Assembly: GCF_055900595.2 (NCBI RefSeq)
Contig: NZ_CM148325.1
Length of the DNA stretch: 64,000 bases
Strand: one strand, 5' to 3'
Shown here piece after piece: positions 11,712 to 53,286 of the stretch. Position 1 is the first letter of the stretch. Every line of letters starts with the position of its first letter. The notes beneath the pieces are model-generated. The model worked only from the letters and a program-made list of their open reading frames with translations. It did no database searches and had not been told where the DNA came from. A program made the position numbers and the translations under genes.

Positions 11712-11759
11712 AACGTTTTTCCGGCGTTTTTTAACGCAGGAATAGTGCGCTTTGTTTAT

Positions 11760-11858
11760 GCCGGATGCGGCTTAAACGCCTTATCCGGCCTACAAATTAT
11801 TCCAAATTCAATATATTGCAGAAATGATGTAGGCCTGATAAGCGTAGCGCATCAGGCA
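11760..11858. repeat. REP (BIME-like) palindromic elements between convergent ysaA and avtA
   Basis: GCCGGATGCGGCTTAAACGCCTTATCCGGCCTAC and GTAGGCCTGATAAGCGTAGCGCATCAGGC: the classic E. coli REP consensus. Confidence 0.8.
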
Positions 11859-11862
11859 ATTT

Positions 11863-16468: not shown

Positions 16469-16481
16469 TTGCATTTCCTCG

Positions 16482-16553
16482 AGCCTTATCCGACTTGTCA
16501 GTCGGATAAGGCTTTTGCTCGCATCAGGTGGTTGTGCTGAGTTACCTGATGCG
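16482..16553. terminator. Two stem-loops between convergent bax and xylR
   Basis: AGCCTTATCCGAC-TTGTCA-GTCGGATAAGGCT (13-bp perfect stem followed by TTTTG) and CGCATCAGGT...ACCTGATGCG. Confidence 0.6.
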
Positions 16554-16575
16554 ACGCCGACAATTCTCATCATCG

Positions 16576-30448: not shown

Positions 30449-30609
30449 CGCTAAATAATAGAGCAACCTTTAATAATCTTCTGCTGAATAAAGATTGTCT
30501 CATATATTAATTTTATGAGATTTTTTTAGGATTATATCAAGGAGAAGAAACGAACTTATTAAACTAGAATAGCTGCGGGTGCTTGAGACTGTTTGTCTCA
30601 GGTATTCAC

Positions 30610-30690
30610 CGAAAGGCAGACAGAGAAAAGCCCCACCTGACTATAAATCAAAGTGAGGCTACCCTATGCCTGAACACCATAAGGTTAGCC
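30610..30690 (-). ncRNA. sokA: putative Sok-type antisense RNA of the hokA locus (approximate position)
   Basis: Inference from hok/sok locus architecture (antisense RNA overlapping the mok translation start region); no promoter or terminator individually verified. Confidence 0.3.
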
Positions 30691-30878
30691 TCTTACTCGT
30701 TGGAAATCAACACAGGAGGCTGGGAATGCCGCAGAAATATAGATTACTTTCTTTAATAGTGATTTGTTGCACGCTTTTATTTTTCACCTGGATGATAAGA
30801 GATTCACTGTGTGAATTGCATATTAAACAGGGGAGTTATGAGCTGGCGGCATTTTTAGCCTGCAATTTGAAAGAGTAA
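30666..30878 (+). CDS. mokA: Mok-type reading frame overlapping and in-frame with hokA (translational coupling ORF)
   Basis: 70-codon ORF starting MPEHHKVSLLLVGNQHRRLG then continuing into Hok; architecture matches known chromosomal hok/mok loci. Confidence 0.5.
   Translation: MPEHHKVSLLLVGNQHRRLGMPQKYRLLSLIVICCTLLFFTWMIRDSLCELHIKQGSYELAAFLACNLKE
30726..30878 (+). CDS. hokA: Hok-family type I toxin (50 aa membrane peptide)
   Basis: MPQKYRLLSLIVICCTLLFFTWMIRDSLCELHIKQGSYELAAFLACNLKE; AGGAGG 6 nt upstream of ATG; terminator hairpin GGCGGGAAGTTATTCCCGCC follows. Confidence 0.85.
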   Translation: MPQKYRLLSLIVICCTLLFFTWMIRDSLCELHIKQGSYELAAFLACNLKE

Positions 30879-31065
30879 GAGTCTTCGGCGGGAAGTTATT
30901 CCCGCCTTTCTTACGGCGTTGCGCATTCTCATTGCACCCAAATTTATTTTTCACAAAAATAATAATAGATTTTATTACGCGATCGATTATTTATTTCCTG
31001 AAAAACAAATAAAAAAATCCCCGCCAAATGGCAGGGATCTTAGATTCTGTGCTTTTAAGCAGAGA

Positions 31066-31278
31066 TTACAGGCTGGTTACGTTACCAGCTGCCGGGCCTT
31101 TAGCGCCGCTTTCGATGGTGAAGGACACTTTCTGACCTTCGTCCAGAGATTTGTAACCATCGTTCTGGATAGCAGAGAAGTGTACGAACACGTCTTTAGA
31201 GCCATCGTCAGGAGTGATGAAGCCGAAGCCTTTGTCAGCGTTGAACCATTTTACGATACCAGTCATTTTACCGGACAT
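31066..31278 (-). CDS. cspA: major cold-shock protein CspA
   Basis: [70 protein letters not shown] (70 aa, RNP1/RNP2 motifs). Confidence 0.98.
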
Positions 31279-31500
31279 AGTGTATTACCTTTAATAATTA
31301 AGTGTGCCTTTCGGCGATATGGCGTGCTTTACAGATTTTGAAGCGTTAAAGGAATGTGCACTACGAGGGGTATCAACGATAACTCTTGAAGGGACTTGCC
31401 TTACTACACTGCTTTAATGGTCTGTACGTCAAACCGTTGATGTGCATTAAGCCACGCATTGGCGGGTGATGCAACAATTATTTTTCATATTTATGATTAA
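31279..31500 (-). promoter_or_regulatory. cspA long 5' UTR (cold-box leader, about 160 nt) and promoter with AT-rich upstream element
   Basis: Reverse complement of 31279..31438 reads as the known cspA leader ...ACGGTTTGACGTACAGACCATTAAAGCAGTGTAGTAAGGCAAGTCCCTTCAAGAG...; TTGCAT / CTTAAT-like promoter hexamers upstream. Confidence 0.7.
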
Positions 31501-32282: not shown

Positions 32283-32993
32283 ATGGCGACAGGAAAGTCC
32301 TGCTCTCGCTGGTTTGCGCCTCTTGCGGCGTTATTAATGGTAGTTAGCCTGAGTGGGTGTTTTGATAAAGAAGGCGATCAGCGTAAAGCGTTTATCGACT
32401 TCCTGCAGAATACAGTGATGCGTAGCGGTGAACGTCTACCAACCCTGACTGCCGATCAGAAAAAACAGTTTGGTCCTTTTGTCTCTGATTACGCGATTCT
32501 GTATGGTTATTCTCAGCAGGTGAATCAGGCGATGGATTCCGGTCTGCGCCCGGTTGTAGACAGCGTTAACGCAATTCGCGTACCGCAGGATTACGTTACG
32601 CAAAGCGGCCCATTGCGTGAAATGAACGGTTCTCTGGGTGTGCTGGCGCAACAGCTGCAAAATGCGAAGTTGCAGGCCGATGCTGCGCACTCTGCGCTAA
32701 AACAGAGCGATGACCTGAAACCGGTCTTTGATCAGGCATTCACCAAAGTGGTAACGACGCCAGCTGATGCTTTGCAACCGTTGATTCCGGCGGCACAAAC
32801 TTTCACGCAACAACTGGTGATGGTTGGAGACTACATTGCTCAGCAAGGTACTCAGGTGAGTTTTGTAGCAAATGGCATCCAGTTCCCGACTTCGCAGCAG
32901 GCAAGTGAATATAACAAACTGATTGCGCCATTACCGGCACAGCATCAGGCGTTTAATCAGGCCTGGACTACAGCAGTCACTGCAACCCAATAA
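32283..32993 (+). CDS. yiaF: DUF3053-family lipoprotein YiaF
   Basis: Start at MATGKSCSRWFAPLAALLMVVSLSGC (lipobox) gives 236 aa; track ORF extended 40 codons upstream. Confidence 0.85.
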   Translation: MATGKSCSRWFAPLAALLMVVSLSGCFDKEGDQRKAFIDFLQNTVMRSGERLPTLTADQKKQFGPFVSDYAILYGYSQQVNQAMDSGLRPVVDSVNAIRVPQDYVTQSGPLREMNGSLGVLAQQLQNAKLQADAAHSALKQSDDLKPVFDQAFTKVVTTPADALQPLIPAAQTFTQQLVMVGDYIAQQGTQVSFVANGIQFPTSQQASEYNKLIAPLPAQHQAFNQAWTTAVTATQ

Positions 32994-42633: not shown

Positions 42634-42710
<77 letters not shown>

Positions 42711-42719
42711 ATTTAGAAA

Positions 42720-42745
42720 AACCAGCCTACGGGCTGGTTTTTTGC
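42720..42745 (+). terminator. proK terminator
   Basis: CCAGCCTACGGGCTGG followed by TTTTTTGC, 10 nt after the tRNA 3' end. Confidence 0.8.
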
Positions 42746-42759
42746 TTTCTGCGACCTGA

Positions 42760-42885
42760 AGAGGATAAGAACCTCCGGGGGCAGAGAGGTTCGACTCGAG
42801 CAAAGCGAGAGAACGTTGCGTCAGCAACGGCCCGCAGGGCGAGCCACGCAGTGGCGAGTAATCCTCTGGCACCGACCAAATCTGA
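42760..42885. other. Degenerate tRNA-like segment ending in a near-copy of the proK 3' end
   Basis: AATCCTCTGGCACCGACCAA (42860..42880) versus proK 3' end AATCCTCTATCACCGACCAA; upstream GAGGTTCGACTC resembles a T-arm. Confidence 0.4.
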
Positions 42886-42889
42886 ACGT

Positions 42890-42970
42890 AGGCCTGATAA
42901 GACGCGTCAGCGCCGCATCAGGCAACGGCACCGCACTTATTGTCGGATGCGGCGTGAACGCCTTATCTGA
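42890..42970. repeat. REP/BIME palindromic elements
   Basis: GCCTGATAAGACGCGTCAGCGCCGCATCAGGC and GTCGGATGCGGCGTGAACGCCTTATCTGACC. Confidence 0.8.
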
Positions 42971-43339
42971 CCGACACACCACATATTTCCCTGCCAAATT
43001 TGCGCCCCACATCTCACTATCCATTAACGGATTTGTGACAGAATCCATTGTCTTTTTTTATATTTGCTTAAATCTTTTTTTGCGTTACTTATGGCTGGCG
43101 CTGGCATTTTCCGCTGTGCGTTTTAGCGTTCATGGTATTAATCGCTCAGATATCCATCTTTTCCTCAGATTTTTTTCATTAAATGCATAAAACTTAATCA
43201 CCAAATGTTGCTAAATATTAAGCTGATTGTTCTGGTTATGTTGGCGTAGCACAAATTTCTCTGCTGCAAATAGCTGTTTGAAGTTTTTTTAATCTTTGTT
43301 TGTGGATTCTCACCGTTGGTGTAAATCCCGGTTGGCTGT

Positions 43340-43541: not shown

Positions 43542-45149
43542 ATGCGTATTTCCTTGAAAAAGTCAGGGATGCTGAAGCTTGGTCTCAGCCTGGTGGCTAT
43601 GACCGTCGCAGCAAGTGTTCAGGCTAAAACTCTGGTTTATTGCTCAGAAGGCTCTCCGGAAGGGTTTAACCCGCAGCTGTTTACCTCCGGCACCACCTAT
43701 GACGCCTCTTCCGTACCGCTTTATAACCGCCTGGTTGAATTTAAAATCGGCACCACTGAAGTGATTCCGGGCCTCGCTGAAAAGTGGGAAGTCAGCGAAG
43801 ACGGTAAAACCTATACCTTCCATCTGCGTAAAGGTGTGAAGTGGCATAACAACAAAGAATTCAAACCGACGCGCGAACTGAATGCCGATGACGTGGTGTT
43901 CTCGTTCGATCGTCAGAAAAACGCACAAAACCCGTACCATAAAGTTTCTGGCGGCAGCTACGAATACTTCGAAGGTATGGGCTTGCCGGAGCTGATCAGC
44001 GAAGTGAAAAAGGTGGACGACAACACCGTTCAGTTTGTGCTGACTCGCCCGGAAGCGCCGTTCCTTGCTGACCTTGCAATGGACTTCGCCTCTATTCTGT
44101 CAAAAGAATATGCTGACGCGATGATGAAAGCCGGTACGCCGGAAAAACTGGACCTCAACCCAATCGGCACCGGCCCGTTCCAGTTACAGCAGTATCAAAA
44201 AGATTCCCGTATCCGCTACAAAGCGTTTGATGGCTACTGGGGCACCAAACCACAGATCGATACGCTGGTCTTCTCTATTACCCCTGACGCTTCCGTGCGT
44301 TACGCTAAATTGCAGAAAAATGAATGCCAGGTGATGCCGTACCCGAACCCGGCAGATATCGCCCGCATGAAGCAGGATAAATCCATCAACCTGATGGAAA
44401 TGCCGGGGCTGAACGTCGGCTATCTCTCGTATAACGTGCAGAAAAAACCACTGGATGACGTGAAAGTTCGCCAGGCTCTGACCTACGCAGTGAACAAAGA
44501 CGCCATCATCAAAGCAGTTTATCAGGGCGCGGGCGTAGCAGCGAAAAACCTGATCCCACCAACCATGTGGGGCTATAACGACGACGTTCAGGACTACACC
44601 TACGATCCTGAAAAAGCGAAAGCCTTGCTGAAAGAAGCGGGCCTGGAAAAAGGCTTCTCCATCGACCTGTGGGCGATGCCGGTACAGCGTCCGTATAACC
44701 CGAACGCTCGCCGCATGGCGGAGATGATCCAGGCTGACTGGGCGAAAGTGGGCGTACAGGCCAAAATCGTTACGTATGAATGGGGTGAGTACCTCAAGCG
44801 TGCGAAAGATGGCGAGCACCAGACGGTAATGATGGGCTGGACTGGCGATAACGGGGATCCGGATAACTTCTTCGCTACCCTGTTCAGCTGCGCTGCCTCT
44901 GAACAAGGCTCCAACTACTCAAAATGGTGCTACAAACCGTTTGAAGATCTGATTCAACCGGCGCGTGCTACCGACGACCACAACAAGCGTGTTGAACTGT
45001 ACAAACAAGCACAGGTCGTGATGCACGATCAGGCTCCGGCACTGATCATCGCTCACTCCACCGTGTTTGAACCGGTACGCAAAGAAGTTAAAGGCTATGT
45101 GGTTGATCCATTAGGCAAACATCACTTCGAAAACGTCTCTATCGAATAA
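43542..45149 (+). CDS. dppA: dipeptide ABC transporter periplasmic binding protein
   Basis: 535-aa ORF MRISLKKSGMLKLGLSLVAMTVAASVQAKTLVYCSEGSPEGFNPQLF... Confidence 0.97.
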   Translation: MRISLKKSGMLKLGLSLVAMTVAASVQAKTLVYCSEGSPEGFNPQLFTSGTTYDASSVPLYNRLVEFKIGTTEVIPGLAEKWEVSEDGKTYTFHLRKGVKWHNNKEFKPTRELNADDVVFSFDRQKNAQNPYHKVSGGSYEYFEGMGLPELISEVKKVDDNTVQFVLTRPEAPFLADLAMDFASILSKEYADAMMKAGTPEKLDLNPIGTGPFQLQQYQKDSRIRYKAFDGYWGTKPQIDTLVFSITPDASVRYAKLQKNECQVMPYPNPADIARMKQDKSINLMEMPGLNVGYLSYNVQKKPLDDVKVRQALTYAVNKDAIIKAVYQGAGVAAKNLIPPTMWGYNDDVQDYTYDPEKAKALLKEAGLEKGFSIDLWAMPVQRPYNPNARRMAEMIQADWAKVGVQAKIVTYEWGEYLKRAKDGEHQTVMMGWTGDNGDPDNFFATLFSCAASEQGSNYSKWCYKPFEDLIQPARATDDHNKRVELYKQAQVVMHDQAPALIIAHSTVFEPVRKEVKGYVVDPLGKHHFENVSIE

Positions 45150-45186
45150 TTAAAAGCCATACAAGGTTGATGGCAAACGCAAAACT

Positions 45187-45285
45187 GCCGGATGCGCTCC
45201 GCTTATCAGGCCTACGAGAGTTCTGCAATGTATTGAGTTTGCACGATTTTGTAGGCCGGATAAGGCGTTCACGCCGTATCCGGCA
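45187..45285. repeat. REP/BIME elements between dppA and dppB
   Basis: GCCGGATGCGCTCCGCTTATCAGGCCTAC ... GTAGGCCGGATAAGGCGTTCACGCCGTATCCGGCA. Confidence 0.8.
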
Positions 45286-45456
45286 TGACCAAAGCGTACT
45301 TTGTCAACAATCTGCATACCCGGTGGTGCTGTGCCTTTAAGTGCAGCGCCATCCGGCAGCAATACTTAATTCCCTGTCCTATAAGGGCGGGAATTGATTT
45401 GTGAGCAATACAGACTCGCAGTTCCAGGCTGCGGGTCACTACAGAGAATCCGGGTT

Positions 45457-50684: not shown

Positions 50685-51039
50685 AAAGTCCTGTCCAGAA
50701 AGAAGTCGGCCTCGCAAAAATGAATAAACCCAGTTTCTCTTGCGCAACAGGTGGAGAAGTCGAATACGCAGTATGTAAAAAATGAGGCAATAGATTCACT
50801 GGGGAGGTCGCGAGGAGGCGCAATTCTACAAAATTGCGCATTTCACTACCAGTCTGGAGTCAGCCCGGATATGAACTGCAACTATTGCAAATAAAGAAAT
50901 TAAGCTGGAAGGTATCACGCAATGAGGAAGGTTGCCGGGTGCTGACGGTAAAAAGCAATCGTAAAATCAGCGGCAAGCCGGAAAGGTTCCGGTGAGGCGC
51001 AATGTTGCGGGGGCTTAATCCCTGGTGGCATTGGTTGCT

Positions 51040-51112
51040 GGAGAGAGAAAACCCCCGCACGTTGCAGATATTCACCTGACAACATCACGGGGGCTAATCT
51101 TGAACCTAGACC
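51040..51112 (-). ncRNA. rdlD: putative Rdl antisense RNA, copy 1 (approximate ends)
   Basis: Minus-strand GC stem (CCCCCG...CGGGGG) followed by UUUUCUCUCU, opposite the ldr leader; inferred from LDR locus organisation. Confidence 0.35.
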
Positions 51113-51159
51113 ACTCAAGAATAGCCGCGAAACGTTGTCATTACAACACAGGCGGCTAT

Positions 51160-51267
51160 ATGACGCTCGCAGAACTGGGCATGGCCTTCTGGCATGATTT
51201 AGCGGCTCCGGTCATCGCTGGCATTCTTGCCAGCATGATCGTGAACTGGCTGAATAAGCGGAAGTAA
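51160..51267 (+). CDS. ldrD: Ldr-family type I toxin, copy 1 (35 aa)
   Basis: MTLAELGMAFWHDLAAPVIAGILASMIVNWLNKRK; closest to K-12 LdrD as recalled. Confidence 0.85.
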   Translation: MTLAELGMAFWHDLAAPVIAGILASMIVNWLNKRK

Positions 51268-51522
51268 CGTGTCAGACGGGCGTCAGGCTGCCGTAATGGC
51301 AATTTGCGCCCGGACCAGGCCGCAGGGATAAAACTCTGCGGCCTTTTTCGTAAGAAAAATGCAACGGTTGCAAGCGGATAATATTCTGCGGAATGCGCAG
51401 CACAGAGTGAAGAAGTGACGGATTCCGGAACAGAAAAACAGTCGTAGAATCAGCGGCAAGCCGGAAGGGTTCCGGTGAGGCGCAATGTTGCGGGGGCTTT
51501 ATCCCTGGTGGCATTGGGTGCT

Positions 51523-51595
51523 GGAGAGAGAAAACCCCCGCACGTTGCAGGTATGCACCTGACAACACCACGGGGGCCATTCTTGCATCCAAACA
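51523..51595 (-). ncRNA. putative Rdl antisense RNA, copy 2 (approximate)
   Basis: Same element one repeat unit downstream. Confidence 0.35.
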
Positions 51596-51642
51596 ATACA
51601 AGAATAGCCGCGAAACGTTGTCATTACAACACAGGCGGCTAT

Positions 51643-51750
51643 ATGACGCTCGCAGAACTGGGCATGGCCTTCTGGCATGATTTAGCGGCTCCGGTCATTG
51701 CTGGCATTCTTGCCAGTCTGATCGTGAACTGGCTGAATAAGCGGAAGTAA
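51643..51750 (+). CDS. Ldr-family type I toxin, copy 2
   Basis: MTLAELGMAFWHDLAAPVIAGILASLIVNWLNKRK (M26L relative to copy 1). Confidence 0.85.
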   Translation: MTLAELGMAFWHDLAAPVIAGILASLIVNWLNKRK

Positions 51751-52006
51751 CGTGTCAGACGGGCGTCAGGCTGCCGTAATGGCAATTTGCGCCCGGACCA
51801 GGCTGCAGGGATAAAACTCTGCGGCCTTTTTCGTAAGAAAAATGCAACGGTTGCAAGCGGATAATATTCTGCGGAATGCGCAGCACAGAGTGAAGAAGTG
51901 ATGGATTTCGACGAGCAAAAATGGCCGTAGAATCAGCGGCAAGCCGGAAGGGTTCCGGTGAGGCGCAATGTTGCGGGGGGCTTTATCCCTGGTGGCATTG
52001 GTTGCT

Positions 52007-52079
52007 GGAGAGAGAAAACCCCCGCACGTTGCAGGTATGCACCTGGCAACACCACGGGGGCCATTCTTGCATCTAGACC
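52007..52079 (-). ncRNA. putative Rdl antisense RNA, copy 3 (approximate)
   Basis: Same element. Confidence 0.35.
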
Positions 52080-52126
52080 ATTCAAGAATAGCCGTGAAAC
52101 GTTGTCATTACAACAGAGGCGGCTAT

Positions 52127-52234
52127 ATGACGCTCGCAGAACTGGGCATGGCCTTCTGGCATGATTTAGCGGCTCCGGTCATCGCTGGCATTCTTGCCAG
52201 TCTGATCGTGAACTGGCTGAACAAGCGGAAGTAA
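52127..52234 (+). CDS. Ldr-family type I toxin, copy 3
   Basis: Identical peptide to copy 2. Confidence 0.85.
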   Translation: MTLAELGMAFWHDLAAPVIAGILASLIVNWLNKRK

Positions 52235-52489
52235 CGTGTCAGACGGGCGTCAGGCTGCCGTAATGGCAATTTGCGCCCGGATCAGGCCGCAGGGATAAAA
52301 CTCTGCGGCCTTTTTCGTAAGAAAAATGCAACGGTTGCAAGCGGATAATATTCTGCGGAATGCGCAGCACAGAGTGAAGAAGTGACGGATTCCGGAACAG
52401 AAAAACAGTCGTAGAATCAGCGGCAAGCCGGAAGGGTTCCGGTGAGGCGCAATGTTGCGGGGGCTTTATCCCTGGTGGCATTGGTTGCT

Positions 52490-52562
52490 GGAGAGAGAAA
52501 ACCCCCGCATATTGCAGGTATGCACCTGACAACATCACGGGGGCCATTCTTGAACCTACACA
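52490..52562 (-). ncRNA. putative Rdl antisense RNA, copy 4 (approximate)
   Basis: Same element. Confidence 0.35.
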
Positions 52563-52609
52563 ACTCAAGAGTAGCCGCGAAACGTTGTCATTACAACACT
52601 GGCGGCTAT

Positions 52610-52717
52610 ATGACGCTCGCAGAGCTGGGCATGGCCTTCTGGCACGATTTAGCGGCTCCGGTCATTGCTGGCATTCTTGCCAGTCTGATCGTGAACTGGC
52701 TGAACAAGCGGAAGTAA
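52610..52717 (+). CDS. Ldr-family type I toxin, copy 4
   Basis: Identical peptide to copy 2. Confidence 0.85.
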   Translation: MTLAELGMAFWHDLAAPVIAGILASLIVNWLNKRK

Positions 52718-52972
52718 CGTGTCGGACGAGCGTCAGGCTGCCGTAATGGCAATTTGCGCCCGGACCAGGCCGCAGGGATAAAACTCTGCGGCCTTTTTCG
52801 TAAGAAAAATGCAACGGTTGCAAGCGGATAATATTCTGCGGAATGCGCAGCACAGAGTGAAGAAGTGACGGATTCCGGAACAGAAAAACAGTCGTAGAAT
52901 CAGCGGCAAGCCGGAAGGGTTCCGGTGAGGCGCAATGTTGCGGGGGCTTAATCCCTGGTGGCATTGGTTGCT

Positions 52973-53045
52973 GGAGAGAGAAAACCCCCGCACGTTGCAG
53001 GTATGCACCTGACAACATCACGGGGGCTAATCTTGAACCCAAACA
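52973..53045 (-). ncRNA. putative Rdl antisense RNA, copy 5 (approximate)
   Basis: Same element. Confidence 0.35.
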
Positions 53046-53092
53046 ACTCAAGAATAGCCGCGAAACGTTGTCACTACAACAGAGGCGGCTAT

Positions 53093-53200
53093 ATGACGCT
53101 CGCAGAACTGGGCATGTCCTTCTGGCATGATTTAGCGGCTCCGGTCATTGCTGGCATTCTTGCCAGTCTGATCGTGAACTCGCTGAATAAGCGGAAGTAA
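53093..53200 (+). CDS. Ldr-family type I toxin, copy 5 (variant A9S, W30S)
   Basis: MTLAELGMSFWHDLAAPVIAGILASLIVNSLNKRK; loss of the C-terminal-region Trp may affect activity. Confidence 0.7.
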   Translation: MTLAELGMSFWHDLAAPVIAGILASLIVNSLNKRK

Positions 53201-53286
53201 CGTGTCATGCGGGCGTCAGGCTGCCGTAATGGCAATTTGCGCCCGGATCAGGCCGCAGGGGTGAAACTCTGCGGCCTTTTTCGTTC

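Follow-up and report, generated by a model that had tools for sequence, protein, structure and literature searches.

The window, i.e., the complete stretch of 64,000 nucleotides analyzed here, corresponds to the reverse complement of the region at about 3.69 to 3.75 Mb of the Escherichia coli K-12 MG1655 chromosome. Along its plus strand, the genes ysaA (+), avtA (-), malS, bax (+), and xylR (-) are followed further downstream by eptB, proK, dppA, and dppB, and all gene names given in an earlier sequence-based reading (here termed the original prediction) were correct. The strain represents a rare E. coli lineage, with 8 to 25 of 5,426 complete genomes being at least 99% identical in intergenic queries; most of these genomes are only 90 to 95% identical here, and the closest ones are those of Z0117EC0005 (dog) and N96 (Tibetan pig).

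REP units were searched for by edit distance on both strands of the full window, using consensus sequences of the three E. coli REP classes that are identical to the three REP queries of Durrant et al. (PMC11208160). Six units were recovered at 0 to 4 edits, the next best matches started from 8 edits, and 20 shuffles of the window produced 0 matches at ≤6 edits. This is the outcome of the formal consensus scan that had been proposed as a check together with the original prediction, whose coordinates proved accurate within a few bases. The six units pair up at three sites (Table 1), all of them are extragenic, i.e., located between annotated genes, and the window contains no further full REP. 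The 14-nt core CTTATCMGGCCTAC has five exact occurrences, all within the REP sites, and at ≤3 mismatches it has 13 matches versus 5.7 expected, a number that was reached by no shuffle. The tetranucleotide GTAG/CTAC is present at the foot of the palindrome in five of the six units, the exception being the y variant downstream of proK. Rfam matches above the gathering threshold were obtained with naRNA4 at the proK pair and with ES036/CssrF (RF02751) on the L linkers of the two other sites. In the copy of the K-12 RefSeq annotation that was consulted, REP features are not listed. Nine-mer REP matches at positions 32942-32964 are located within a coding region and were dismissed as chance.

The consensus scan and the Rfam models thus agree with the expectation of the original prediction that these are REP/BIME repeats of the E. 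coli core genome. Four sites had been claimed, of which ysaA/avtA, proK, and dppA/dppB stand, whereas the junction of bax and xylR contains REP fragments only, with a best match of 10 edits.

Table 1. Positions of genes, REP units, linkers, and hairpins in the window
Feature	Position	Strand	Remarks
Non-REP hairpin between ysaA stop and BIME	11719..11742	.	From folding; sole element left in BIME-less alleles (Ec55 alignment)
y-type REP TGCCGGATGCGGCTTAAACGCCTTATCCGGCCTAC	11759..11793	+	2 edits from y consensus; exact CTTATCCGGCCTAC core
L linker (35 nt)	11794..11828	+	Rfam ES036/CssrF, 43.5 bits (gathering 37.6)
IHF-consensus-like 13-mer ATTCAATATATTG	11806-11818		In the ysaA/avtA L linker; one mismatch to consensus
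Short-Z REP (z1)	11829..11858	-	0 edits; holds IS621 target ATCAGGCCTAC
avtA stop codon	11863-11865	-	z1 REP begins 4 nt beyond
Hairpin H-a, GAGCCTTATCCGAC-loop-GTCGGATAAGGCTT then TTTT	16481..16514	+	From folding; just past bax stop; conserved in K-12
Hairpin H-b, CGCATCAGGT-14 nt-ACCTGATGCG	16517..16557	+	From folding; REP sub-match
proK, tRNA-Pro CGG	42634-42710
proK terminator	42722-42743
RtT-like element	42744-42878		Rfam, 95.8 bits
Long-Z REP (z2)	42888..42924	-	2 edits; holds IS621 target
Short linker (16 nt) ACGGCACCGCACTTAT	42925..42940	+	Between REP heads; aligns to naRNA4 linker CGGUGCCG
y-variant REP TGTCGGATG...CTTATCTGACCGAC	42941..42975	+	4 edits
dppA	43542-45149
Presence/absence segment (157 bp)	45158..45314	+	BIME-1 plus flanks of ~29 nt; bounded by 5-bp CATAC direct repeat
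Short-Z REP (z1)	45186..45215	+	2 edits; 36 nt past dppA stop; holds IS621 target
L linker	45216..45250	-	Rfam ES036, 44.8 bits
IHF-like 13-mer ACTCAATACATTG	45226-45238	-	In the dppA/dppB L linker; consensus match
y-type REP	45251..45285	-	1 edit
Hairpin 1, dppA 3' UTR	45320..45356	+	Kept in all alleles; 8 edits from short-Z consensus
Hairpin 2, terminator-like, AATTCCCTGTCC...GGGCGGGAATT then GATTTG	45368..45395	+	From terminator scan; present in all alleles
Conserved block GATTTGTGAGCAATACAGAC upstream of dppB	45396-45416		All alleles; adjoins hairpin 2
dppB	from 45457

BIME classes of the three REP sites

BIME-1 is defined by a y and a z1 REP in inverse orientation around a long and conserved L linker, in which an IHF site is frequent, and is present in single copy, whereas BIME-2 comprises y and z2 REPs with a short S linker in multiple tandem copies (PMC3333891). 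From these definitions, the labels z1 for the short-Z unit (30 nt) and z2 for the long-Z unit (37 nt) were inferred. The elements at ysaA/avtA and dppA/dppB are each exactly 100 bp long and composed of a y REP of 35 nt, an L linker of 35 nt, and a short-Z REP of 30 nt. The two copies have opposite orientations and are collinear and 85% identical after reverse-complementing one of them, and at the matching position of both linkers a 13-mer with one mismatch to the IHF consensus WATCAANNNNTTR was found (0.03 expected per linker). Judged by their sequences, the segments 11759-11858 and 45186-45285 are BIME-1, with an IHF site that represents a consensus match only. They agree with the known BIME-1 (RIP/RIB elements) in composition, the length of 100 bp, the GTAG/CTAC ends facing the linker, an ES036-matching L, and the presence of one unit per locus. 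The extragenic position and the many copies per genome are likewise shared (queries containing a BIME-1 found a median of 17 to 20 places per genome), and there is no structural difference, the IHF site being a predicted one.

The homology of the two BIME-1 copies extends for about 15 nt past the y unit (TAAACAAAGCGCACT versus TGACCAAAGCGTACT, 12/15 identical; positions 45286-45300 and 11744-11758), and this extension possibly represents a flanking motif of the kind known from the BIME literature. Beyond the z side, the similarity between the flanks of the two copies is not significant. The BIMEs fold into long inter-REP hairpins (z = -4.5 to -7.3).

By the BIME definitions, the third element can be classified as a single BIME-2-type unit, with one unit instead of tandem copies at the proK site of the window, K-12, and O157 alike. 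It resembles BIME-2/naRNA4 (REP325) in the head-to-head arrangement of a long-Z and a y REP, in a short linker containing CGGTGCCG, and in a full-length match to the Rfam model, but it consists of one unit rather than an array, and its y REP is a GTCGGAT...ATCTGAC variant whose terminal tetranucleotide is CGAC in this strain versus CTAC in K-12 and O157. The pattern GCCKGATGCG-N12-CTTATCMGGC matches the long-Z unit exactly (0.01 expected). The pair is kept in all alleles aligned. Its description as lying after proK is right insofar as it is found downstream of this gene, but loose, as 178 nt with the terminator and the RtT-like element separate it from the tRNA; the promoter region of dppA is located further downstream.

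The match of naRNA4 (RF02564, a y plus long-Z pair) covers positions 42891-42972 on the minus strand with 69.6 bits versus a gathering threshold of 59.5, and naRNA4 has been described from REP325 (PMC4550694). On this basis, one could propose that the proK pair gives rise to a naRNA4-like nucleoid-associated RNA that, together with HU, organizes the chromosome. We regard this as highly improbable, because the Rfam family is effectively a generic model of y plus long-Z REP pairs and the K-12 Term-seq tables list no 3' end at the proK pair. The window has a single RtT-like repeat after proK, compared with about 1.6 copies in K-12 and about 0.3 copies in O157, and an IS3-family element is located between proK and RtT in NZ_CP195454.1.

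Hairpins between bax and xylR

The two hairpins at the junction of bax and xylR, designated H-a and H-b, fold with -47.8 kcal/mol (z = -6.4). H-a has GCCTTATCCGAC and its complement as arms, representing the tail half of a REP, and an exact REP match of 10 nt is found on either arm. The right arm of H-b together with its flank (CCTGATGCGACGC) matches the head of the long-Z unit at 13/13 positions and represents the longest REP sub-match outside the BIMEs in the window. Altogether, four exact matches of ≥10 nt to the REP consensus sequences are found within 75 nt. A full-length REP was not detected at this junction in the window scan, the best match of 10 edits being at chance level; the only Rfam match was naRNA4 with 13.8 bits (E = 2.3), and the GTAG/CTAC tetranucleotide is missing from both hairpins. 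The term "REP-like" in the original prediction is hence fair with respect to the sub-matches of 10 to 13 nt, whereas "REP-type" is inappropriate for a site without a full-length match, and a REP annotation is not warranted here in this strain.

The bax/xylR allele of K-12 is 88 bp longer and includes a complete y-variant REP (GTAGGTCGGATAAGGCGTTCACGCCGCATCCGACA). Among 40 evenly spaced records, 27 had a short allele like that of the window and 12 a long, K-12-like one; about 30% of the genomes carry the REP, and the query finds one place per genome. The REP claimed for this junction was probably the one of K-12.

That H-a and H-b are genuine, divergent REPs of the same family as those of the other three sites appears very doubtful. 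The density of exact sub-matches would be in line with such a relationship, as would the GTCGGATAAGGC of the full y-variant REP in K-12-like alleles of the same junction, which equals an arm of H-a. The distance of at least 10 edits over the full length, the low naRNA4 score, and the absence of GTAG/CTAC argue for a different status, and so do the single-copy nature of the locus and a differing pairing scheme, in which the halves are paired with their respective complements instead of head with tail. H-b is best described as a REP relic. H-a, with the TTTT that follows it, is probably the terminator of bax; a simple consensus terminator scan did not call H-a, but it also missed the obvious terminator of proK.

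Strain polymorphism and IS621 targets

REP sites had been referred to as hotspots for rearrangement, and this view is borne out by the presence or absence of both BIME-1 and of the bax/xylR REP among 5,426 complete genomes and by IS621 insertions in Z units of other strains. At least 80% of the 501-bp ysaA/avtA query is covered in 4,491 of the 5,426 genomes. In 6 of 39 sampled chromosomal records, the ysaA/avtA allele is 113 bp shorter and lacks the BIME-1; what remains is a 38-bp spacer with only the hairpin TTCCGGCG...CGCCGGAA. The indel also takes in the homologous flank of ~15 nt next to the y unit, and the BIME-1 of this site is absent from about 15 to 17% of the genomes. At dppA/dppB, the long allele is found in 3,249/5,426 complete genomes, and the remainder (about 40%), including O157:H7, lacks exactly 157 bp. 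E. albertii and E. whittamii carry the same segment with identical boundaries, and since it is therefore old, the short allele more likely originated from a deletion.

The natural target of IS621 is the 11-bp sequence ATCAGGCCTAC with a CT core (PMC11208160). Three exact copies are present in the window, one per Z unit, compared with 0.62 expected at ≤1 mismatch. In NZ_CP169399.1, IS621 is inserted at the position corresponding to 11831/11832, i.e., at the GTAG/GCCTGAT junction of the ysaA/avtA Z unit, and in NZ_CP027371.1 at the GTAG/GCC junction of the proK Z unit; both junctions show a 2-bp AG/CT overlap. The three Z units thus carry the exact REP target of this bridge-RNA recombinase of the IS110 family, with all sites unoccupied in the window, and represent predictable landing sites of IS621.

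REP elements in the 3' UTRs of avtA and dppA

REPs have been described as local, context-dependent stabilizers of 3' UTRs and as partial Rho-dependent terminators with strain-variable locations (bioRxiv 10.64898/2026.03.23.713779), and gyrase preferentially cleaves the y REPs of BIME-2 (PMC6379681). The elements studied here are selfish or semidomesticated intergenic repeats that strains have acquired and lost. At the DNA level, they offer the 11-bp target of IS621, and, going by the literature, they might be bound by IHF at the L linker and by gyrase at the y REPs. At the RNA level, the literature suggests that the long hairpins in the avtA and dppA 3' UTRs can slow down 3'-to-5' decay or attenuate read-through, depending on the context. 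All our observations fit the picture of REPs as context-dependent 3' UTR regulators; REP/BIME elements, their polymorphism between strains, the targeting by IS621, and context-dependent effects in 3' UTRs are already described and ordinary.

Positions of transcript 3' ends were taken from the K-12 Term-seq data of Adams et al., supplementary file 1 (PMC7815308). The 3' end of avtA, 3741106(+), corresponds to position 11714 of the window, just past the non-REP hairpin, and since it maps beyond the BIME, the BIME-1 lies inside the avtA 3' UTR. The avtA stop codon is located 4 nt from the z1 REP, i.e., within the distance of <16 nt for which a REP-dependent downregulation of translation has been reported, which makes this gene a candidate for such damping.

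For dppA/dppB, the original prediction stated that the BIME probably contributes to the differential expression of dppA versus the permease genes, and Term-seq for 3' ends at 45190 to 45290 had been proposed as a check. The K-12 tables list no 3' end in this interval and none inside either BIME-1, in a data set from which multimapping reads were discarded and in which repeat-internal ends could be missed. The one 3' end in the dppA-dppB spacer, 3705889(-), which is found in both tables, corresponds to position 45358 of the window, 73 nt past the BIME and two bases beyond the hairpin 1 foot. The same supplement set also has an entry at 3705667, within dppB, in what appears to be a bicyclomycin comparison table. 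A literature search for dppA in connection with REP or Term-seq gave nothing specific, and the four supplementary files of PMC12306157 contain no entries for these genes.

The strongest version of the claim would make the BIME-1 the principal cause of high dppA and low dppBCDF expression, either by blocking 3'-to-5' exonucleases or by attenuation, as in the malE-malF paradigm. Like the malE-malF REPs, the element is situated in the classic position, i.e., in the 3' UTR of an abundant binding-protein gene and in front of genes for membrane components. The spacer has a minimum free energy of -129 kcal/mol (z = -7.3), the 157-bp segment predates the divergence of E. coli, E. albertii, and E. whittamii, and the dppA-dppB spacers of other genera contain repeated palindromes of their own. 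On a genome-wide scale, tandem gene pairs with an intervening REP show an upstream-biased expression, but the effects of REPs on half-life are not uniform (bioRxiv 10.64898/2026.03.23.713779). In contrast to the paradigm, the dppA BIME-1 is dispensable in about 40% of the strains, which retain the operon, and the mapped 3' end coincides with another, downstream hairpin. REP325 (yjdMN), a dual stabilizer and partial Rho-dependent terminator, is an array of six repeats, whereas the dppA element is one BIME-1.

Apart from the BIME, the spacer contains hairpins 1 and 2, which no allele lacks. In a sample of 120 dppA loci from Enterobacterales, dppB was located in 113, and the spacer of all 113 measures 101 to 333 nt. 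The block GATTTGTGAGCAATACAGAC was found in 81 of these 113 spacers, and in 70 of 76 distinct spacers a hairpin of ≤-10 kcal/mol stands immediately 5' of it according to per-sequence folding, so that a hairpin adjoining the block is near-universal. RNAalifold yielded no consensus structure for hairpin 2 across genera, with stem lengths that differ and an alignment that is out of register. Candidate roles of the block itself are a signal for dppB translation or processing or an internal promoter. Stable hairpins past dppA are found across Enterobacterales without this BIME.

Since the BIME-1 is dispensable, the mapped 3' end lies elsewhere, and other structures are kept everywhere, the BIME-1 is probably not the main determinant of dppA expression, and the reading modeled on malE-malF is unlikely. 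The probable contribution asserted in the original prediction finds little specific support. Our reading is that some stable hairpin is needed after dppA and that the BIME-1 is an optional addition. The dppA 3' end and the polarity of dppA over dppB are probably determined mainly by the hairpins at 45320-45356 and 45368-45395, while the BIME-1 is probably an optional extra in setting dppA levels and may have a modest accessory role in stabilization. As the BIME is found in some natural alleles and missing from others, it should not be taken to control the dppA/dppB stoichiometry, and these alleles represent a ready-made experiment. We are very confident in the overall view that three sites of the window are standard E. 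coli REP/BIME repeats, that the fourth consists of hairpins made of REP half-sequences, and that the dppA BIME-1 is at most an optional modifier.

Hairpin 1 itself might have a REP ancestry. At its position, short-Z-like REPs with 4 to 6 edits are found in Citrobacter, Salmonella arizonae, Leclercia, Enterobacter sp., and Pseudenterobacter, and several of the genera have them as a tail-to-tail REP/iREP pair. In an alignment that includes one synthetic guide sequence as a row, the hairpin 1 of Escherichia aligns to the outer REP/iREP arms of Leclercia, Enterobacter, and Pseudenterobacter, and an internal gap of 26 nt removes both CTAC/GTAG tails. This suggests a degraded REP pair that was retained as a plain hairpin, and the bax/xylR hairpins look like similar remnants. 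As a tentative scenario, which we consider possible though not the favored outcome, hairpin 1 would be an old REP/iREP pair that lost its center with both GTAG/CTAC tails and became fixed as the stem-loop of the dppA 3' end across Escherichia. REPs would then have been domesticated by internal deletion, with bax/xylR as a second example and the BIME-1 as a separate, dispensable element. If true, an internal deletion would cost REPs the recognition sites of their transposase and of IS621 and leave the RNA hairpin in place; the fuller forms would be those of Salmonella, Citrobacter, Leclercia, and Enterobacter, and the Escherichia form would be immobile.

Some further differences from K-12 were noticed outside the REP sites. 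Five tandem ldr/rdl toxin-antitoxin units of 483 bp are located at 50951-53241 (five Rfam rdlD matches of 80 to 90 bits), and their K-12 counterpart is a single ldrD/rdlD. An intact sok antitoxin RNA and a cspA thermoregulator were identified at 30577-30728 and 31011-31438, respectively, and the IS150 that lies beside hokA/sokA in K-12 is apparently absent from the window.
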